Positions 2,177 through 62,350 of a stretch of 64,000 nucleotides of DNA are shown here, piece by piece. The stretch's first letter is position 1; each line of letters opens with the position of its first letter. The notes under the pieces are model-generated. The model was not told the DNA's origin. It searched no databases and saw nothing but the letters and a program-made list of their open reading frames with translations. The stretch comes from Shigella phage Shfl2, in the sequence record HM035025. One strand, 5' to 3'. The position numbers were made by a program, and so were the translations under genes.

Positions 2177-3996
2177 TACTGGCTCATCCATTCTTTACGA
2201 AGGTCAGCATTATCTCCCATGAGCATTTCAAAAAGCTCTTTCCAATTCTCAGGAAGTTTAACAACATCATATACTGGGTTTTGAATCATCTCACGATATT
2301 CAGATTTTTCCAAAGAGCCAAGTCCCTTAATATAACGGATGCTATGTTTAGGTAGAGCATCTTTGGCACTCTCATATTCAGCGACTGTATAAAACCATTC
2401 TTGTTTTTTACCGACCTGAGCGATGATTACAGGAGTTTTGACAAAGCGAATTCGTCCTTGCTCAAACAGTTCTGGCCAATTACTAAAAAACCCGAGCAGA
2501 GAAGGATAAATGCTTCCTAGACCATCATGGTCAGCATCAGTCATAATAGCAATATTATGATAATTCAAGTTTTCAGCTTTTTCACCGAGAACTAATCCAG
2601 TGATTGCGCAAATATCAAATAGTTCTTTGTTTTTAAGCATATCAGCATATGACATACCCCAACTGTTGAGAACTTTACCGCGCAATGGATAACCACCGTG
2701 AAGTTCTTTATCACGAACATCAATAAGATATCCGATAGCCGAATCACCCTCGGTTAAGAACAATGTAGTATCAGCATCTTTACCACAAAGATTCGCTTTG
2801 ATATGTTTATGAACCTTTGCCTTAGAAGCCTTTTTAGCTGCTTTAGTTTCTGCTGCTTTTTCTGCTGCCAATTTACGAGCTAATGCTGCTTCAATAATTG
2901 GCATCAAAATTGCTTCATTATTTAGAATAGCACGTGAAATCTTTTTAGCATCAAGTTGAATATGACTACGAATTTCACCAAAAGGAGAAGTAAGTCGTTC
3001 TTTAGTTTGAGAATCAAATCGCATGTTTTTCATATCACGGACAAACATAACGATAGTCAAACATTCTTTGACACGTGCTTTAGTTACATCAATTTTGAAC
3101 TTACGTTTGATTTGTGGAATAAGGTCTTCACAAATATCATCCATAACACAGTCAATGTGATGGCCACCATTCTTAGTGTGAATGTTATTCACATAAGTTA
3201 ATTGACGAAATCCATCTGGTGAACGACCAACCGCAATAGAACAATTTTCTTGTTCTTGAACAATAGCATGTTCATCATACTGTCGTGCATATTTCTTAAA
3301 ATTGCCCTGAACCTTTTTACCATTAAAGGTAAATTGAATATCAGGATAAACAACAGCAAGTGTCTGGAGACGATCTAGTGTAATGTCAAGATAAACTTGG
3401 GACAGCTCATTAGTTTCAAATGACATAAAATCAGGAATGAAAGTAACACGAGTTCCTTTCCATTTTCCTGGAATAGTTTCCCATGATTTATTTTCCATGC
3501 CATTTGAACAACGAACTACAATATTATTTTGACCGTCGCCAGTTTCACCAACAAACATCACAGAAAAAATGTTTGTCAAACTAGAACCAACACCATTCAT
3601 ACCGCCGGTGACACGTTCTTTATCATCACCGAAGTTACCACCTGCTTTTGGAATAGTCCACGCAGCAACAGGACCAGGAATTTCTTCACCGGTAGGTGTT
3701 TTAACCATCGCTTGTGGAATACCGCGACCGTTATCTTCAACTGTTACCTGATTATTTTTAATGTTAACATTAATTTTATTCGCGAATTTAAACTTAGTAC
3801 GAATACCTTCATCTACTGAGTTATCGATAATTTCATCAATAAGCTTAACAAGACCAGGTACATACTGAACACTTTCCCATTTACCAAACAGAAAGCGCTC
3901 ATGCATTTCATTAGCTGAAGAGCCAATGTACATGCCGCTACGCTTTTTGATATGTTCAATATCGCTCAGAATTTTAATTTCATTCTTAATCATCAC
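2176..3996 (-). CDS. 39: DNA topoisomerase II large (ATPase, GyrB-like) subunit, unsplit form
   Basis: 606 aa, starts MIKNEIKILSDIEHIKKRSGMYIGSS; GHKL ATPase motifs (VEDNGRGIP, GxxGxG); a single continuous ORF, unlike the T4 39 + 60 arrangement. Confidence 0.9.
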   Translation of the reverse strand: MMIKNEIKILSDIEHIKKRSGMYIGSSANEMHERFLFGKWESVQYVPGLVKLIDEIIDNSVDEGIRTKFKFANKINVNIKNNQVTVEDNGRGIPQAMVKTPTGEEIPGPVAAWTIPKAGGNFGDDKERVTGGMNGVGSSLTNIFSVMFVGETGDGQNNIVVRCSNGMENKSWETIPGKWKGTRVTFIPDFMSFETNELSQVYLDITLDRLQTLAVVYPDIQFTFNGKKVQGNFKKYARQYDEHAIVQEQENCSIAVGRSPDGFRQLTYVNNIHTKNGGHHIDCVMDDICEDLIPQIKRKFKIDVTKARVKECLTIVMFVRDMKNMRFDSQTKERLTSPFGEIRSHIQLDAKKISRAILNNEAILMPIIEAALARKLAAEKAAETKAAKKASKAKVHKHIKANLCGKDADTTLFLTEGDSAIGYLIDVRDKELHGGYPLRGKVLNSWGMSYADMLKNKELFDICAITGLVLGEKAENLNYHNIAIMTDADHDGLGSIYPSLLGFFSNWPELFEQGRIRFVKTPVIIAQVGKKQEWFYTVAEYESAKDALPKHSIRYIKGLGSLEKSEYREMIQNPVYDVVKLPENWKELFEMLMGDNADLRKEWMSQ

Positions 3997-5528: not shown

Positions 5529-5798
5529 TTAATTGAACAGTGGAGCGATGCGTTTCAGAAGAGTAGCAGCACCTTTGGCGAATTTTACATCATGAAAAAC
5601 AGTTTCTTCTTCCGTTACAACACGAGCTTTAATGTTTTCACAATCCCAATTTTTACGAACAATCTTCAAAAGCTGCAGTAAATCTTTACATTCAGCAATA
5701 TCGATAACACATCCACGAGAATCTTCCATTATCGCACGATAACCGTAAACCATACCATAATCGTTGAAAGATTGTTCGATGATAATTAAGTTTTCCAT
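5529..5798 (-). CDS. hypothetical protein carried on a repeated promoter/5'UTR cassette
   Basis: Likely start at MENLIII (GGAG SD); upstream leader resembles the cassette found at 25.3, 49.7, 51.2 and 54.8 kb. Confidence 0.45.
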   Translation of the reverse strand: MENLIIIEQSFNDYGMVYGYRAIMEDSRGCVIDIAECKDLLQLLKIVRKNWDCENIKARVVTEEETVFHDVKFAKGAATLLKRIAPLFN

Positions 5799-5895
5799 TT
5801 TATTCTCCAAGTTGTTTTCTGTATCAGTAGTTGATATTGATATAGTACCATAATCAACTACTGATGTATATAGTTTTATGAAAAAATTTTAAACT

Positions 5896-6462: not shown

Positions 6463-6963
6463 CTAGCTTACACGAACATTAATCACTGCGCTGCGAGGAA
6501 CTACAGAGTATTCTCCAGCATGAACTACATTAAGAAGTTCAACGCCATCTTCAATCCATTGGTCAGTTACCCAACCGCCGACCGGATTCGCAAATGGACG
6601 ACGAATGTAAACCGCCTTACACAACAAATCAGTCGGGTCTTCAATTTTTTCAACTGGTGCCACATACATAGAAACTAAATCCATATCAATATGGGATTTT
6701 TCCTCTTCTTTTTCAATTTCTGTCAATAGACTAAAATCTTTTTCATAAATAATAAGCGATGACACCATTCCATAATAGTTTCTAATTTCAATATACATCA
6801 TGCCGATAAGAATTCCGCTATTAACACTAATAACAGTAAAAGGATATCCGCCGGTTAAAGCAAGAAGTTCACAAAACTTATTATGAGCTGTATTAGATAG
6901 TACCGGAAAATTCTTAATTTCATCAAATTTTTTCAATTGATAAACAGCATTATTTTTAATCAT
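6463..6963 (-). CDS. hypothetical protein, C-terminal domain paralogous to motB-like ORF
   Basis: 166 aa; ...WVTDQWIEDGVELLNVVHAGEYSVVP vs ...YITDQWVEDGVKLYNVVFLGTYKVIP in 5896..6387. Confidence 0.45.
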   Translation of the reverse strand: MIKNNAVYQLKKFDEIKNFPVLSNTAHNKFCELLALTGGYPFTVISVNSGILIGMMYIEIRNYYGMVSSLIIYEKDFSLLTEIEKEEEKSHIDMDLVSMYVAPVEKIEDPTDLLCKAVYIRRPFANPVGGWVTDQWIEDGVELLNVVHAGEYSVVPRSAVINVRVS

Positions 6964-14774: not shown

Positions 14775-14840
14775 AGTACTCTCCTCTATAAGATAATTCT
14801 ATTATACCATACTCATTTTGGAAAGTAAACCAGTAAAATG

Positions 14841-17355: not shown

Positions 17356-17520
17356 TTACTCTTCTTTTTCTTTAGATTCCTCTTTTTTCTTTTTAGGAAT
17401 CTGTTCAGGACCTTTATTTACTATAGCACCTGACGTTGTTCCAGTGGAGATATTTTCAGGATTACCACCTGAATCTCCAGCTACCATATCTTCTTTGATA
17501 AATTCTTTATATGTTTTCAT
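17356..17520 (-). CDS. small acidic/lysine-rich peptide with capsid-targeting-sequence-like N-terminus
   Basis: Hand-translated MKTYKEFIKEDMVAGDSGGNPENISTGTTSGAIVNKGPEQIPKKKKEESKEKEE; GAGG SD; first 10 residues resemble the T4 internal-protein CTS MKTYQEFIAE. Confidence 0.4.
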   Translation of the reverse strand: MKTYKEFIKEDMVAGDSGGNPENISTGTTSGAIVNKGPEQIPKKKKEESKEKEE

Positions 17521-17521
17521 A

Positions 17522-17878
17522 TTAACCTCTATTCATAAAAGCATTAAAAATTTGGTCATCAATTGATGGAACAGCAACCTTTTCTACATCATTTAACAAA
17601 TCATTAATTTCATCAGATAGCATAACGCATGTACCTTTATTTCCTGTAATTGTTACTGCGCAATTACGAACGTTTTCTTTATCAAATTTTAGGTTAATAT
17701 TTTCGTAGTGAAAATCCTTTAATGCCGAATATATTTTTAAAATGAAATTGTCTTTTACTACAATAAAACCGACTTCACTATTAAAACGCGGCTCATGAAA
17801 ACTGTAATAAACCTTTTCATCTATAAAATCGTATGAAATTTTTTCCATTTTTAAATATGAAAATTCAGAACTATACAT
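17522..17878 (-). CDS. hypothetical protein (61.1-like)
   Basis: 118 aa; C-terminus ...SIDDQIFNAFMNRG shared with the next ORF. Confidence 0.45.
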   Translation of the reverse strand: MYSSEFSYLKMEKISYDFIDEKVYYSFHEPRFNSEVGFIVVKDNFILKIYSALKDFHYENINLKFDKENVRNCAVTITGNKGTCVMLSDEINDLLNDVEKVAVPSIDDQIFNAFMNRG

Positions 17879-17879
17879 A

Positions 17880-18506
17880 CTAACCTTTATTCATAAAAGC
17901 ATTAAAAATTTGGTCATCAATAGAAACATTTACTTTAGACTGTTTTTCTGATGGTAATTCATATCCACATATTACAATTTTGTGATCAATATCAAAATAC
18001 ACAGAAGCAATATGATTAATGATGTTTTCAGTAAAGTCTAAATCAACATCAATATCTTTTTGACCACAGCCCAAAGGATAAATAATGCGAGTAATTCGAT
18101 TATCTTTAACAAATATTCCACCGACATACTCTGTGCTGCGTTTAAAGTCTACACGCCGACGAAATGAAAAATATTCAGGCTCTCTATGAGCTCGGCTCAT
18201 AGGACACAACGAGTAACTAGAATAAGAGATGTCAAATCCTACGCCTTCAATATGAGCCAAAGTGTCATGATTAAACCAATTATAATCGTACGCCAAATCC
18301 ATTAGATTATAATATGTAAAAGGCACCGGATTAACATCATTAGTCACAAGCATGTAATTAGCAACTGCTATAATTTCATTGTTTTTAACGAATACAAACC
18401 GTGATTGATGCGAATGACCTGGACCCGCGTTTTCACGATTAATGATATAACACTGGGCACCTTTATATTTGTATGTATCTTTGCACTTGTGCATTTGATA
18501 GAGCAT
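17880..18506 (-). CDS. hypothetical protein (61.2-like)
   Basis: 208 aa; C-terminus ...SIDDQIFNAFMNKG. Confidence 0.45.
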   Translation of the reverse strand: MLYQMHKCKDTYKYKGAQCYIINRENAGPGHSHQSRFVFVKNNEIIAVANYMLVTNDVNPVPFTYYNLMDLAYDYNWFNHDTLAHIEGVGFDISYSSYSLCPMSRAHREPEYFSFRRRVDFKRSTEYVGGIFVKDNRITRIIYPLGCGQKDIDVDLDFTENIINHIASVYFDIDHKIVICGYELPSEKQSKVNVSIDDQIFNAFMNKG

Positions 18507-18856: not shown

Positions 18857-19111
18857 CTATTTTATTTCCTCAAGTTCGTTAATCAATAAAAGTTCTCTGA
18901 CGCTAAAAACAAAGAAAAATGTGTTCCCATCAACCAGAGCATGACCGCTAATAGAACACCCTCTGCGGAATTTAGAAACTTCACAATCTAGAACTGTAAA
19001 GGGTTTTAATCCTATGACTTTAGCTGTGCGTCTATTCAGTTCACAACCACTTGCGAATTTTTCCAAATCTTCTTCTGATTTAAACTGATATTCTCTATTA
19101 ACTAGCATCAT
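18857..19111 (-). CDS. hypothetical protein in the sp-dmd island
   Basis: 84 aa ORF with its own early promoter (gtaaac at 19159-19164). Confidence 0.45.
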   Translation of the reverse strand: MMLVNREYQFKSEEDLEKFASGCELNRRTAKVIGLKPFTVLDCEVSKFRRGCSISGHALVDGNTFFFVFSVRELLLINELEEIK

Positions 19112-24684: not shown

Positions 24685-25065
24685 TCACTTAGTCAAATTT
24701 TTTACACATGAATTATAAGAATTCACTACATACTCCATCGGAGCATTTTTACCTGTACGCCATTGGTAATTATTAGCCCAATTGGCCCAAAGCTCAGCGC
24801 AGTAGTTTTCAATTTTTTCTTCGCGTGTAATTACATCTGAATTACGATATGCTTGAGCAGATTCATCTGGGCGAATAGCTTCGTCAAAATTCGCCTGCAT
24901 CTGTTCTACTGTCTGTTTTGGAGCTTCTTTATAACACTTAACATTAGGATTATAAAATTTGCTTGAACAGTTTACAATTTTTCCTACATCAGATTGATTT
25001 ACTACCGGTCCTTGAGCTACACAGCCAGTAAGACCTAATGCAATAACCAAAATAGCGATTTTCAT
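24685..25065 (-). CDS. lipoprotein (signal peptide plus lipobox LTGC)
   Basis: 126 aa; MKIAILVIALGLTGC... Confidence 0.5.
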   Translation of the reverse strand: MKIAILVIALGLTGCVAQGPVVNQSDVGKIVNCSSKFYNPNVKCYKEAPKQTVEQMQANFDEAIRPDESAQAYRNSDVITREEKIENYCAELWANWANNYQWRTGKNAPMEYVVNSYNSCVKNLTK

Positions 25066-25075
25066 AATAATTTCC

Positions 25076-25312
25076 TCAAATACAAGTAGTAATTACTCCA
25101 GTAGTGCTTACACAGGTATTACCTAATTGAACACCCAACGTTCCATTAGTATTCATATGAAGATTATCATCAATTTTTGTTGATACTTTACCATTCATGT
25201 GAATAATAGTATTAGATTCAATCACATTCTGAGTGTCATTTTCAATATCAATAAATGGAACAGTTGCTAATGCAACTAAACACACTGCTAAACAACCATA
25301 AACAATTTTCAT
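25076..25312 (-). CDS. small secreted protein carried on a repeated promoter cassette
   Basis: Start at MKIVYGCLAVCLVALA (GGAG SD); signal peptide; the upstream 52 nt are identical to the leader of the AAA+ gene at 51.15 kb. Confidence 0.5.
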   Translation of the reverse strand: MKIVYGCLAVCLVALATVPFIDIENDTQNVIESNTIIHMNGKVSTKIDDNLHMNTNGTLGVQLGNTCVSTTGVITTCI

Positions 25313-25377
25313 TTTATTCTCCAAATCCGTATCAGTTGATAGTTGTATAGTACCATGGAAGAACGGGGATGTAAACA
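25305..25377 (-). repeat. repeated early-promoter/5'UTR cassette, copy A
   Basis: Minus strand GTTTACA-17 nt-TACTAT then CAACTATCAACTGATACGGATTTGGAGAATAAAATG; 52 nt identical to 51148-51199. Confidence 0.7.
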
Positions 25378-25457
25378 GTTTTGTGAAAAATTTTTAATGA
25401 ATTTACAGGACCTAGAATCATCTATTTTTCCTAAGTATAGATTTATATTACTTGTAT

Positions 25458-25480
25458 GAAAAAGGGACCCGGAGGTCCCT
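25458..25480 (-). terminator. intrinsic terminator downstream of gene 43
   Basis: GGGACC-UCCG-GGUCCC hairpin followed by UUUUU on the minus-strand RNA. Confidence 0.65.
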
Positions 25481-49194: not shown

Positions 49195-49722
49195 TTATGC
49201 GAGTACCGTCTTTAACCGTTCTTCAAACTTCCGAAGAGTATTTTGGCGTTCAGCTCTTTGCTTTTTGTAAGTTTCAATACGCTCTGAAATGAGAGTGTAT
49301 CGTTCATTTACTGATTCTTTCATAAAATCAGGAATTTCACGAGAAGCTTTAATCTCATCAAATTTATCAATAACAGCTTGCTCTTCAGCAATTAAGTTAT
49401 CATACATTAAAATATCTTTCTTGATGAACTCAATATCTTCTTGAGTTACACGAGATAATTTAGATGCTTTATCCTTTTTGTACTGTTCGTTAGTATCACG
49501 AGACCAGTGTAATGTACGATTTTTATTCGTATTTTTGTAAATTTCTACAATACCAATTTCATCAATAATAACGATCCAATTCCAACGGGATTTGTAAATT
49601 TGTCCTCCATCAACAGTGATTTCACCTCCGATTGAGATGTCATTAAAGAACTTACTCTGTGCTTCAGATTTAAATTTACCATCGTTGTAATTTACTAAGT
49701 TGAAAATATCTTTAGCGTTCAT
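49195..49722 (-). CDS. hypothetical protein carried on a promoter cassette
   Basis: Start at MNAKDIFNLV (175 aa); the track's N-terminal extension is translation of the cassette leader. Confidence 0.5.
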   Translation of the reverse strand: MNAKDIFNLVNYNDGKFKSEAQSKFFNDISIGGEITVDGGQIYKSRWNWIVIIDEIGIVEIYKNTNKNRTLHWSRDTNEQYKKDKASKLSRVTQEDIEFIKKDILMYDNLIAEEQAVIDKFDEIKASREIPDFMKESVNERYTLISERIETYKKQRAERQNTLRKFEERLKTVLA

Positions 49723-49780
49723 TTTCTGTTCCTCCGTAGTTGATAGTTGTATAGTACCACAGAGGAACAGTCTTGTAAAC
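49720..49780 (-). repeat. repeated early-promoter/5'UTR cassette, copy
   Basis: gtaaac -35 at 49775-49780 and shared tatagtacc -10/leader block. Confidence 0.6.
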
Positions 49781-50186: not shown

Positions 50187-51155
50187 TTATTTCAGAAGAG
50201 TAACTTCAGCGATTTCTTCCCAACCGTTTTTGTCGGTCATAATAAAGTCAGCAAGATAAAGAGCAGTACGCAGTGAAACATTGCGTAAACGATTAACATT
50301 AACTTTCATCCATGATAATGCTTTATAAGTTTCTTCATCAGAAAGACCGCGCTTTTGCATCATGTCAGTTGAAAGAATAACATCTTCAACCCTGACCATA
50401 ATTTCTTCATTAGTGTGAACACCCAAATCTAAATAAACTGAGCGGGACACTAATGCTTGTAAGTGTGGAGCAAGTTTAGTACCACGGTCTAATTCGCGGT
50501 CAATGTCAACGTTTGTGATAAAAACAATCGTTCCTTTAAATTCAAACTCACGGTCAATGCCTTTTTCTTCTAAGTAAGAAGATGCAGTGCTCCAGCAGAC
50601 TTTACGGGTCTCTCCGGTGTCCAGAGCGGCTTTTAGAAGATTAAGAATGTCCATATCAGAGAAAACATCCACATCATCAATCAAAAGGACAGAATTCTCT
50701 TCACGATTATTCCAAAGCTGCTCATAAAGACCAATACCAGAGATTTTACCATTAATGCTTTTATATTCAATGTATCCAATATCATTTGCTTTATTTAAAG
50801 CTTTATCTAAAGAATACGTTTTACCAATACCTGCTGCGCCAGAGATAATCAATGAACGAATATTTCCGTTAATAATACCATTCGTCATCATTCCCATAAC
50901 ATTAAATCTTTTATTAATGCGGGTTTTCATATCTTCATACGATTCTTTAACTTCTTCAACTTTTACACCATCATATGAAATATCTGATTTGTAAACCCAA
51001 ACACCGCGACGTTTACCGTCAATTTCAACAAAAACTTTACCATCTCCTTGTGCATCTACCGGAGCATTATCTGGGAACCATTCGCCTAAGAGCTCAAAAG
51101 TTCCAGAGATTTCTTTACCGAAGTAGATACCCTTATTGATAGTTACAGTTTTCAT
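50187..51155 (-). CDS. P-loop NTPase, AAA+-like
   Basis: Start at MKTVTINKG (322 aa); Walker A GAAGIGKTY, Walker B VLLIDDVD, sensor-1-like IVFITN. Confidence 0.6.
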   Translation of the reverse strand: MKTVTINKGIYFGKEISGTFELLGEWFPDNAPVDAQGDGKVFVEIDGKRRGVWVYKSDISYDGVKVEEVKESYEDMKTRINKRFNVMGMMTNGIINGNIRSLIISGAAGIGKTYSLDKALNKANDIGYIEYKSINGKISGIGLYEQLWNNREENSVLLIDDVDVFSDMDILNLLKAALDTGETRKVCWSTASSYLEEKGIDREFEFKGTIVFITNVDIDRELDRGTKLAPHLQALVSRSVYLDLGVHTNEEIMVRVEDVILSTDMMQKRGLSDEETYKALSWMKVNVNRLRNVSLRTALYLADFIMTDKNGWEEIAEVTLLK

Positions 51156-51262
51156 TTTATTCTCCAAATCCGTATCAGTTGATAGTTGTATAGTACCATC
51201 CAAATCCGTATCAGTTGATAGTTGTATAGTACCATAAAGCTTTATGCCTGTAAACCGTTTTG
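51148..51262 (-). repeat. promoter/5'UTR cassette with internal tandem duplication (2 x 36 nt)
   Basis: CCAAATCCGTATCAGTTGATAGTTGTATAGTACCAT occurs at 51164-51199 and 51200-51235 and again at 25321-25356; gtaaac -35 at 51251-51256. Confidence 0.75.
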
Positions 51263-51279
51263 TGAAAAATTTTTAAAAT

Positions 51280-51302
51280 AAAAAGGGAGCCCGAAGGCTC
51301 CC
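51280..51302 (-). terminator. intrinsic terminator
   Basis: GGGAGCC-UUCG-GGCUCCC hairpin followed by a U-run on the minus-strand RNA. Confidence 0.6.
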
Positions 51303-51304
51303 TA

Positions 51305-54391: not shown

Positions 54392-54631
54392 TTAAACTCT
54401 CGTATTATGATCGATAATTTCATCAAGAAACATATCTAAAGCTTCTACAGCATTATCAACTTTAGCTTCAAGTTCTTCAGCGCCTTTATTTGCAATGCCT
54501 GCCGAAAACCAAGCAAAGTCACTAAGTTCCTCGTCTGCTTTGCGAATTAAAGCTACCAATTCTTTAATTTTATCTGCTTGTTCGATACTAATCATTATTC
54601 CACCACATATGAAAGAGAGAATATTGCACAC
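54392..54631 (-). CDS. hypothetical small acidic protein
   Basis: 79 aa ORF. Confidence 0.35.
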
Positions 54632-54783
54632 GCCATGTGAGTTGCAACTTCATCACACATATTATAACGTTTCTTAAGAAGTTCTACAAGTTCTTCACTA
54701 GTAACTTCATCCATGTCGACGAAAAAATCACCATTAATGATGACGTAGATATTTCCTTCTTGATTGAGTGCTTCAATTTTCAT
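54595..54783 (-). CDS. hypothetical small protein carried on a promoter cassette
   Basis: Start at [11 protein letters not shown] (62 aa); the track's extension is translation of the cassette leader. Confidence 0.4.
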
Positions 54784-54841
54784 GATGTTCTCCTCTTTAT
54801 CCGATAGTTGTATAGTACCACAGCTCAAACGGAAAGTAAAC
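54781..54841 (-). repeat. repeated early-promoter/5'UTR cassette, copy
   Basis: gtaaac -35 at 54836-54841 and shared gatagttgtatagtacca block. Confidence 0.6.
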
Positions 54842-54851
54842 CGGTAAAATG

Positions 54852-54874
54852 AAAAAAGTCTCCCGAAGGAGACT
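54852..54874 (-). terminator. intrinsic terminator
   Basis: AGUCUCC-UUCG-GGAGACU hairpin followed by a U-run on the minus-strand RNA. Confidence 0.6.
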
Positions 54875-60170: not shown

Positions 60171-61084
60171 TCAATTAGAAAATAAATTTATCCAAGATTG
60201 TTCTTTAATTAAAAATGGCTCAGAATCATATGCCATTAAACTTTGTGTAATTAGTCCTTTAAAAGGCCCATCAATAAATTCCATGGTAAAATATGGAATT
60301 TTATTCATTAGCCGTGCATTAGGAGCCGTGCACAAAACTCTGCATCCTTTGAATACGCCTTTTTGTAATTTGTATTGCTTAAGATAAAATTCGCTCAAAA
60401 TGTTATTTTTTGCCAAAATTTCAAAATGATTCACCAATTTATTTTTAATAGTTTTTGGCGAAAAATAAAGATATTCGAAAAGTTGCGAATCTGTCATCAT
60501 TGCATTCCAATCACAAAAAATTGAGGACGAGTAATACCACCAATGCAACATTTACTATTGCAGCAGTACTGTACAGTGTCAATATGAGCATCATAAATCT
60601 TATCCATATCAGGAGATTTGACAGGCTCATCAATTATATACAAAATTCGCGAAAGCGATAAACCTCTGAACTTGCTTCCTTTATTACCAATAAAACTGCG
60701 CACAGAATCAGTAAATAAGCGGAATCGAATATCATCATTAGAATAACGCGAAAATTCCTTTTTAATGTTATTTGCAGAAATTTTAGCGTAAGCTGAAGTA
60801 TTAGAAAGAACAATAACTGTTCCGCCATCATACAACCAATTAGCAGCAAAGTTAGTCACAGCAATTGATTTACCGGATTGACGTCCACCATCTAGTCGAA
60901 GTGTACAATACTGTTTAAGTAAGTCTTCAAATGATAGGATATAATCGTTTTTACAAATTTCTTCTACTCTAGCATCAGAATGGTGTGTAAAAGCATTCAT
61001 CAGGATAGATAAGGACCAGTTAAAAATGTTCTCATTTCTTCTCTCTCTAAGTTTGGGCCATTCCATGGCGCATGAATTGTCCAT
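60171..61084 (-). pseudogene. terminase-like P-loop ATPase split into two overlapping frames (possible frameshifted remnant)
   Basis: ORF 60497..61084 has Walker A GGRQSGKS and Walker B ILYIIDEP but no SD and an N-terminus that runs through a leader hairpin; ORF 60171..60551 continues in the -1 frame; overlap contains an A6/T6 run (60515-60520). Confidence 0.35.
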
Positions 61085-61130
61085 TTCTGTATTTACCCAT
61101 TACCGCACTTGGGCTCGACCTTATTACAGG
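61040..61130 (-). repeat. repeated leader element with 9 bp hairpin, copy 1
   Basis: TAAGTTTGGG-CATTCCATGGCGCATGAATTGTCC-TTTCTGTATTTAC-CATTACCG shared with 61690-61770. Confidence 0.6.
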
Positions 61131-61189
61131 TTGGCGGGAATCCCTCACAAAATCATGAGGTCCAGGTTGTTCCCATATTTCTTATTTGC

Positions 61190-61663
61190 TTATTTGAACG
61201 ATTTAACGTACTGAATAGAACCTTTACTATTCACGAAAGCGATTTTACCATTTTTATTATACATGGTAGCAGTACGCTGATAGCCGTAAGTTTGCTTACC
61301 AGATTGATAACCAACTAATGCAAAATTATCTTCACCCATTTTATTCTGTTTAGCGCGAATGCGTTCATGACCATGTGCCATAAGAACCTTAGCATCACCA
61401 GTTGCAATGGATCGACGAGTTTTTTCATCTTCAACTGTATTAACAAAGTCGTCAAATGAATCAAATTTAGCGTGAGATTTATTATACAGTTTTCCATCTA
61501 CTGCATAATTATATCCCTGTACATCCATCTCAACTTCTGTACCATCATCCAATACAGCAGTGATTTTCTGTCCTTTTTTAAATTTCAAAAGATCAGTAAA
61601 AGATTCAGCAATAATTTGAGAATTAATAGCTGCTTCAGTAATAAATTCTTGATATGTTTTCAT
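61190..61663 (-). CDS. internal protein (IP) with capsid targeting sequence
   Basis: 157 aa; starts MKTYQEFITEA, i.e. the T4 IP CTS (MKTYQEFIAE) with a gp21-type cleavage context; body unlike T4 IPII as recalled. Confidence 0.6.
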   Translation of the reverse strand: MKTYQEFITEAAINSQIIAESFTDLLKFKKGQKITAVLDDGTEVEMDVQGYNYAVDGKLYNKSHAKFDSFDDFVNTVEDEKTRRSIATGDAKVLMAHGHERIRAKQNKMGEDNFALVGYQSGKQTYGYQRTATMYNKNGKIAFVNSKGSIQYVKSFK

Positions 61664-61771: not shown

Positions 61772-62350
61772 TTAAGAATTACCACGGGCTGCATTAGCAA
61801 CGGCATACGCGTACTGAACATTAGCGTCTTTAAACGTACCTTTAGAGGTATCTATTTCTGCCTTAAAGCCGCCTTTAGTCATAACATCGGCAAATTCTTT
61901 ACGGAAAGCCATTGCATCAAGACCTTTCCATGATGATTTATGCTTGGCGAATTCAAGACCAGCGTAGTTGACAGCCTTAGCTAATTTATTATCAATAACC
62001 CATTTACCAGCTTTAGGCACAAACTTCGGGCCTTTCTGTTTAGAGAACAGTTTTAAATTCCAGCGGCGAAGGTCACTGTCGGCTTTAACAAAAGCTGCGT
62101 CTAAGTTACTAGCAACAACATCTTCAATATGAGCAAATTTAAGTCCGTCAACTTCAATATTTAGATCGGTACGCCAGCGAAGTCCTTCCCAAGCGAAGGC
62201 TTTAAAATCGGAAGCTTTTGTAGCTAAGTATCGTTCAATAGGGGCTGTTTTAGGGTCAAAGCCGTTTCCTCGGTAAGTCCACTCGTCTTTATTAATGCCT
62301 TTGGCCTTTTCAACAGAAGCTTCAGCGATAAATTCTTTATACGTTTTCAT
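61772..62350 (-). CDS. ipIII: internal protein III-like
   Basis: 192 aa; starts MKTYKEFIAEA (CTS); size matches T4 IPIII. Confidence 0.7.
   Translation of the reverse strand: MKTYKEFIAEASVEKAKGINKDEWTYRGNGFDPKTAPIERYLATKASDFKAFAWEGLRWRTDLNIEVDGLKFAHIEDVVASNLDAAFVKADSDLRRWNLKLFSKQKGPKFVPKAGKWVIDNKLAKAVNYAGLEFAKHKSSWKGLDAMAFRKEFADVMTKGGFKAEIDTSKGTFKDANVQYAYAVANAARGNS

Follow-up and report, generated by a model that had tools for sequence, protein, structure and literature searches.

The window analysed here is the 64-kb stretch (64,000 nucleotides) of the Shigella phage Shfl2 record HM035025. It corresponds to the initial ~64 kb of a T4-type genome, beginning with rIIA and extending to the lysozyme gene e, with a GC content of ~34% and practically every gene on the minus strand. 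Around the copy in focus DNA polymerase (gene 43) is followed by two small open reading frames (ORFs), imm and gene 42, and this region matches ~550 Tequatrovirus (T4-like) genomes with 90-99% identity. Judged by these matches, the source of the window is a Tequatrovirus, and the window represents the part of a T4-like genome in which the early genes lie. Gene 43 is associated with a terminator-like stem-loop (25463..25480, minus strand; AGGGACC-TCCG-GGTCCCT followed by a T run, recognised by eye). The regulatory cassette in focus (25310..25395, minus strand) consists of the UP-like tract AAAAATTTTTCACAAAAC, the -35 element GTTTAC (25376-25371), an 18-nt spacer ending in TGG, the -10 element TACTAT (25352-25347), a 34-nt leader ACAACTATCAACTGATACGGATTTGGAGAATAAA with the Shine-Dalgarno (SD) motif GGAG (25322-25319) and the start codon ATG (25312-25310). 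The terminator is located 86 nt upstream of this -35 element and is not directly adjacent to the promoter; in the annotation of the related phage SA21RB a terminator is likewise placed between gene 43 and the downstream ORF, and the arrangement in T4 is the same. The cassette leads into an ORF of 78 aa (ORF78; 25076..25312, minus strand) with a hydrophobic N-terminus, which belongs to phrog_4189 and is of unknown function. After a gap of 10 nt (GAGGAAATTATTATG) it is followed by the imm.1 homologue (24685..25065, minus strand), the gene that is driven directly by the cassette in T4. ORF78 is hence flanked by gene 43 on one side and by the superinfection-immunity genes imm.1/imm on the other. 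The deposited annotation of SA21RB (2277-2624) extends the ORF78 homologue to 115 aa with a start inside the promoter, but the SD and ATG of the cassette indicate a predicted product of 78 aa.

This module is not confined to the imm locus. Five minus-strand start codons (5798, 25312, 49722, 51155 and 54783) each lie 3' of TGGTACTAT-ACAACTATC and a leader that ends with GGAG, and they open ORFs of 89, 78, 175, 322 and 62 aa, respectively. The pattern GTTTAC-N16-19-TACTAT has five matches on the minus strand (18857, 25376, 49780, 51255 and 54841) in comparison with 0.01 expected from shuffled sequences, and the leader 26-mer GGTACTATACAACTATCAACTGATAC occurs three times in the window versus 0 expected. 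At 18857 the hexamer pattern fits but the leader differs. In a comparison of the window with itself the copies at 5.8, 25.3, 49.7, 51.2 and 54.8 kb are grouped together (families D1, D3 and D4). The first-pass annotation, which had proposed one module in front of at least five minus-strand genes and a self-comparison as its check, is thus borne out in this main point. Its description of GTTTAC with a 17-nt spacer holds if the -35 element is read as TTTACA/T, which lies 17 nt from TACTAT in four of the five copies; taken literally, the N17 pattern has no match, as the spacer from GTTTAC is 18 nt (GTTTAC-N18-TACTAT, again in four copies). The exception is the copy at 5798, where TATACA (ATATAC in the frame of GTTTAC) stands instead and where TCAATATC replaces CAACTATC, so GTTTAC is not common to all five as had been claimed. 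The extended -10 element with its TGn (TGGTACTAT) and a GGAG or GGAGG located 6-8 nt before the ATG are found in all five copies. An AT-rich UP-like tract, AAAAATTTTT(T)CA(C/T)AAAAC, precedes the -35 element of the copies at 25376, 51255 and 5870, and the copies at 54841 and 49780 have shorter T-rich or A-rich tracts at this position.

The four other cassettes differ in their outer parts. The cassette of the nrdC.10 homologue (51153..51303, minus strand) begins with a terminator stem-loop (51303-51284) and continues with a UP-like tract, the -35 element (51255-51250), the -10 element (51231-51226), a 36-nt unit that is present twice, GGAG and the ATG at 51155; its cargo (50187..51155, minus strand; 322 aa) belongs to phrog_1250 and shows a weak clamp-loader-like match. 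The cassette of the nrdC.8 homologue (49720..49780, minus strand) has GTTTAC at 49780-49775, TACTAT at 49756-49751, the short leader ACAACTATCAACTACGGAGGAACAGAAA and the ATG at 49722, its promoter extends into the end of the ORF upstream, and its cargo comprises 175 aa (49195..49722, minus strand). In the cassette of the mobD.5 homologue (54781..54874, minus strand) a terminator stem-loop (54874-54857) is followed by GTTTAC (54841-54836), TACTAT (54817-54812), the leader ACAACTATCGGATAAAGAGGAGAACATC and the ATG at 54783, and the cargo (54595..54783, minus strand) has 62 aa. The degenerate copy (5796..5890, minus strand) possesses a UP-like tract, TATACA in place of TTTACA, TGG with TACTAT (5847-5842), the long leader ATCAATATCAACTACTGATACAGAAAACAACTTGGAGAATAAA and the ATG at 5798, which opens an ORF of 89 aa (ORF89; 5529..5798, minus strand; phrog_3720) located upstream of cef. 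With respect to cargo function, the PHROG families matched were all of unknown function. A stem-loop immediately upstream of the promoter is present in two of the five copies only, i.e. those of nrdC.10 and mobD.5; none was found upstream of the copy at 49780 in the scan, and none was seen by eye upstream of that at 5870.

The likeness among these copies could reflect functional constraint only. Here, the cassettes would be the strongest early-promoter class joined to an optimal unstructured leader and SD, inherited vertically at fixed loci, and genes would be gained and lost by ordinary microhomology-mediated illegitimate recombination unrelated to the cassettes. Two properties of the promoter and leader regions are in line with such constraint. 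Other early promoters likewise have the UP tract, the -35 element, TGn and the -10 element, and a weak general CTATCA(A/G)CT around +1 occurs at several early-promoter-like sites of the window besides the cassettes, which means that the resemblance between cassettes is in part generic promoter consensus and in part specific for the family. Moreover, the single-copy leaders are less structured than shuffled sequences (minimum free energy 0 to -2.1 kcal/mol, z-scores from +0.47 to +1.73), as expected if open translation starts are selected. Because of this weak folding with positive z-scores, and as no Rfam family matched anywhere in the window, a structured RNA or riboswitch in the leader was rejected. 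The family-specific part of the likeness speaks against constraint as the whole explanation. The 12 nt directly 3' of the -10 element are 100% identical among the copies at 25376, 49780 and 51255, and these are 75% identical to the same stretch in the copies at 54841 and 5871; for most other early-promoter-like sites in the window the corresponding value is ~0.2-0.6, with a few at 0.67. Between the leaders at 25312 and 51155 the identity is ~98% across 55 nt, although the two genes are unrelated and the shared segment includes leader sequence outside the promoter consensus. From the A of the ATG it continues for another ~10 nt (ATGAAAAyTGT), so that identity does not stop exactly at the start codon, as the first-pass annotation had stated, but within ~3 codons of it.

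Chimeric architecture is a further point that constraint does not easily accommodate. In its upstream half (stem-loop, -35 element and TTTCC) the mobD.5 cassette shows 93% identity with the promoter located at 14830, whereas its -10 and start region belong to the TACTAT family; on this comparison the cassette is chimeric. Further early promoters of the window occur in near-identical pairs with their spacers included, namely 2147-2178/46771-46802 (94% identity), 19623-19660/53992-54029 (84%) and 14820-14860/54831-54871 (93%). These pairs mean that the cassette-family phenomenon is wider than the TACTAT-ACAACTATC group.

The nrdC.10 copy is peculiar in that its 36-nt unit TGGTACTATACAACTATCAACTGATACGGATTTGGA, comprising the -10 element and leader, is repeated in tandem (51234-51199 and 51198-51163, minus strand) with a TGG microhomology at the junction. 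The duplication junction, used as a query, had no match elsewhere in the phage collection, only one unit is present in UFV09, the closest relative checked, and with a 301-nt query of this locus the best relatives among the matches listed span ~264-267 nt, i.e. they are ~36 nt shorter, three others carrying an insertion. The duplication hence looks unique to the Shfl2 record. It adds a second extended -10 element (TGGTACTAT) without a -35 element and, as read from the sequence, creates a transcribed AUG that opens an ORF of 15 codons (MVLYNYQLIRIWRIK), whose TGA overlaps the ATG of nrdC.10. This duplication fits the 'recombinational slippage' that was noted for PeSL (promoter early stem-loop) elements by Comeau et al.

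In T4 (NC_000866), TGGTACTATACAACTATC cassettes stand at the orthologous loci, with positions 6608 (before cef), 27058 (imm.1), 53921 (nrdC.8), 55362 (nrdC.10) and 58758 (mobD.5), so that all five window copies occupy the same loci as in T4. Additional T4 copies are found at 70674 (e.8) and 65392 (denV), the latter being more divergent; both denV and its divergent upstream cassette are missing from the window. In the annotations of AF158101 and NC_000866 the cassette loci that were inspected contain no promoter features. Since five of five copies are positionally conserved with T4, movement of cassettes in the Shfl2 genome is not demonstrable, and these orthologous positions are what vertical inheritance under constraint predicts. 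The few differences between copies are suggestive at most of gene conversion between paralogous cassettes: the spacer at the imm locus of the window (ATCCCC...) is nearer to the T4 e.8 copy than to the T4 imm.1 copy, and an ACT indel of the imm-locus copy is common to the nrdC.10 copy but could be explained by slippage.

The cargo genes fall into two groups. The homologues of nrdC.8, nrdC.10 and mobD.5 show 98-100% amino acid identity in close relatives and are widespread, as nrdC.8 is matched in 740 phage records including RB69, mobD.5 in 516 records and the 5' end of nrdC.10 together with its promoter in 507. ORF78 is found in 324 of about 550 records, in most of them with only ~84% nucleotide identity between flanks of 90-99%, and T4 lacks it, having imm.1 immediately behind the cassette. 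Of 492 records with a match to ORF89, 259 contain it in full length, and the others contain shorter partial matches, mostly a 62-nt remnant of the T4 type. By this survey polymorphism among the five cargos is confined to ORF78 and ORF89, and the other three (nrdC.8, nrdC.10 and mobD.5) are near-universal in the genus; that three cargos are conserved in about 500-740 genomes is again in favour of constraint. The T4 remnant of ORF89 is unannotated (6480-6560, minus strand) and corresponds to 5529-5798 of the window; in it ATGGAAAA is joined out of frame to the last ~62 nt, which gives the 11 codons MENSLKVLILF*. From this junction we read that T4 lost ORF89 when an AAAA microhomology gave rise to a deletion within the gene, with a frameshifted remnant left behind, and cassette-to-cassette recombination is not supported as the origin of this polymorphism. 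Nor is it supported for ORF78, as there is no second cassette downstream and both ends share only ATGAAAAT, a possible microhomology. Both junctions agree with the constraint-only reading, in which losses and gains occur independently of the cassettes.

Observations in relatives are less readily reconciled with constraint alone. With a 100-nt cassette query 549 phage records, nearly all of them Tequatrovirus, were matched at 3787 places, which corresponds to ~7 per genome (5-9 among the matches listed). An exact scan of IMG/VR for TGGTACTATACAACTATC yielded 27 loci with downstream ORFs from at least 12 unrelated families, and for six of these neither the window nor the initial 72 kb of T4 contains a homologue. 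The leaders at these loci depart from the common sequence at varying points, giving a mosaic pattern, and the same promoter spacer or leader variant stands before different genes: at locus L027, for instance, an ORF of 37 aa lies behind a cassette of the nrdC.8 type, and at L022 the gene behind the nrdC.10 promoter is an ORF of 49 aa. The nrdC.10 cassette of UGKSEcP2 is the site of an insertion of two ORFs (49 and 87 aa) with another early promoter, and the direct repeat TTGGRGAATAAAATGAAAACT flanks this insertion. What distinguishes the loci L018 and L023 is a module of 345 nt that holds an ORF of 75 aa together with a second TACTAT promoter and has repeated CTATCAAATAAATGAACTGAAAC at its borders. 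By these comparisons the cassette family bounds inserted gene modules in relatives. Together with the leader identity between unrelated genes and the chimeric mobD.5 cassette, the reuse of leader variants across genomes, the shifting points of divergence and the repeat-bounded modules all stand against constraint as the sole cause, as does the publication of mini-circle junctions from RB49/phi1 in the same interval between -10 and SD (PMC2839356). We regard constraint alone as a rather unlikely explanation. The claim of the first-pass annotation that the cassettes mark exchangeable cargo is only partly supported: ORF78 and ORF89 are polymorphic, with breakpoints at short microhomologies and not between two cassette copies, and cassette-bounded modules occur in relatives. 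It went too far for the three near-universal cargos at loci that are fixed in comparison with T4, and the check that it proposed, a comparison of cassette positions and cargo among T4-like genomes, gave the same divided outcome.

Several known systems resemble the cassettes described here. The closest are the PeSLs of the T-even phages PST and T4, i.e. of the same genus, for which Comeau, Arbiol and Krisch 2014 (PMC4122927) give the consensus TTTACW-N17-TAYWAT, preceded by AT-rich sequence and followed by an SD and a start codon that form the 3' end of the element. The TTTACA/T-N17-TACTAT of four window copies fits this consensus, and the AT-rich tracts, the SD and ATG at the 3' end and the presence of multiple copies in early and hyperplastic regions are shared as well; the paper also links PeSLs with indels between close relatives and describes 'degraded' or slipped copies (PMC4122927). 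Differences are the stem-loop, which is directly upstream in only two of the five window copies, and the three cargos that are conserved and not variable. The proposed match with PeSLs holds accordingly for the consensus, the AT-rich tract and the SD/ATG end as given in PMC4122927, and only in two copies for the adjacent stem-loop. The PeSLs of RB49 and phi1 (Arbiol et al. 2010, PMC2839356) likewise combine a terminator, an early promoter and a Shine-Dalgarno sequence and flank small genes of unknown function. Their mini-circles result from crossovers between the -10 element and SD/ATG (PMC2839356), and it is in this interval that the window copies are near-identical. In contrast with the window, they belong to another genus and have near-perfect TTGACA/TATAAT boxes and stems with GN-loop-CN, and their mini-circles were shown experimentally (PMC2839356). 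Canonical T4 early promoters (Hinton 2010, PMC2988021) share the UP/-35/TGn/-10 architecture, and the same sequences are found at the orthologous T4 loci; in contrast with them, the TACTAT-ACAACTATC subfamily also shares a transcribed leader that is outside the general promoter consensus.

A further parallel are the 5' segments of the T-even ip genes (Repoila et al. 1994, as cited in PMC4122927), where repeated modules of promoter, SD and 5' region precede interchangeable genes. There, the identity enters the coding region (MKTY(Q/K)EFI), whereas that of the window cassette family stops within ~3 codons. We take this N-terminus of the ip genes to be a capsid-targeting peptide. Modules of the ip type are also present in the window, with start codons at 61663 and 62350. 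The corresponding internal-protein genes (61190-61663 and 61772-62350, minus strand) have a near-identical SD and N-terminus (MKTYQEFITEA and MKTYKEFIAEA); one is ipIII-like (95% to T4 ipIII) and the other, with 157 aa, replaces T4 ipII (31% identity). A 54-aa ORF at 17356-17520 starts with MKTYKEFIKE as well. The adjacent ORFs 17522-17878 and 17880-18506 (minus strand) have the same C-terminal peptide (SIDDQIFNAFMN(R/K)G), a 49-nt segment is 94% identical between 17518-17566 and 17876-17924, and by these likenesses the two ORFs look like tandem paralogues. For the vs.8 homologue (60497-61148, minus strand) the similarity to T4 vs.8 is spread over two different frames (61148-61029 and 61084-60500), and this suggests that close to its 5' end there is a frameshift or a sequencing error, or that the gene is a pseudogene.

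The repeated modules of 70-100 bp belong to the published PeSL cassettes, a family of strong early promoters with a common untranslated leader, and they are situated in an early and partly hyperplastic region of the genome. The PeSL phenomenon has already been published for T4/PST and RB49/phi1 and the window is one more instance of it. The explanation that we consider best, and probable, is that the copies are paralogous immediate-early promoter and 5'UTR cassettes of Tequatrovirus and represent the PeSL elements in their T-even form. T4 early promoters consist of UP, -35, TGn and -10 elements with extra consensus regions and out-compete host promoters (PMC2988021). From the T4 early-promoter consensus we infer that host sigma-70 RNA polymerase would be recruited to the cassettes via the AT-rich UP-like tract, the GTTTAC/TTTACA -35 element, the TGn extended -10 and TACTAT, and transcription would probably start ~7 nt past the -10 element. 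The resulting leader of ~20-45 nt, essentially unstructured and ending with GGAG and ATG, would favour immediate and efficient translation of a small early gene. The endoribonuclease RegB cuts within Shine-Dalgarno sequences, with GGAG as the motif cleaved in some early mRNAs (PMC2988021), so RegB may cut the GGAG of the cassettes and shut off some early mRNAs. In addition, near-identity of 30-100 bp among several copies per genome would offer crossover places for the very active homologous recombination of T4, and recombination at such copies may give rise to chimeric cassettes, slippage duplications and the gain or loss of promoter-plus-gene modules. A crossover between the copies at 51255 and 49780, for example, would produce a circle of 1475 bp or the matching deletion with a junction inside TGGTACTATACAACTATCAAC, in analogy to the PeSL mini-circles of RB49/phi1 with their crossovers between -10 and SD/ATG (PMC2839356). 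Evolution by chimera formation, slippage and exchange of modules can be read from comparison in the relatives; in the Shfl2 genome itself we infer it.

Alternatively, the leader ACAACTATCAACTACTGATAC... might be a dedicated cis-element, either a common operator recognised by an RNA-binding factor or nuclease of phage or host origin, or a preferred site of recombination or nicking, which would imply a co-regulated set of ~7-8 immediate-early genes. Conservation of the leader beyond the promoter consensus at ~7 places per genome in ~550 genomes would suit such an element, and so would a TATC...GATA inverted motif that recurs in several variants and the presence of a GGAG Shine-Dalgarno of the RegB-cleaved type in all copies (PMC2988021). 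However, neither a stable nor a conserved structure is predicted, an Rfam family match is lacking, leader length and sequence vary to the extent that the nrdC.8 and mobD.5 types share the first 9-17 nt only, and nothing in the window points to a protein partner. We consider a dedicated element of this kind very improbable. That the leader would be more than passive homology and act, through a phage or host factor, as a dedicated cis-signal (post-transcriptional operator, nuclease target or preferred recombination initiation site) of a regulon with ~7-8 genes in every Tequatrovirus is a similarly long shot. If it were true, the 36-nt duplication at nrdC.10 would be a natural variant of the signal, equipped with a second -10 element and the 15-codon upstream ORF. 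Chance resemblance or assembly artefact, finally, has next to no probability as an explanation of the family and is refuted by the shuffled controls (0.01 and 0 matches expected) and by the recurrence of the five copies at these loci in T4 and in hundreds of genomes that were sequenced independently, so that the copies are real; only for the 36-nt duplication (51163-51234), which is unique to the Shfl2 sequence, is an error of assembly or sequencing conceivable.

Regarding the cassettes as the T-even form of PeSL elements, the contribution of the present analysis is a census (~7 copies per genome in ~550 genomes, with two of the five local cargos being polymorphic) together with one slippage duplication that has not been seen before. 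For T4-like phages the repeated promoter-leader cassettes would mean that newly acquired small genes obtain immediate early expression, and that the homology between the copies is at the same time available for the shuffling of genes.
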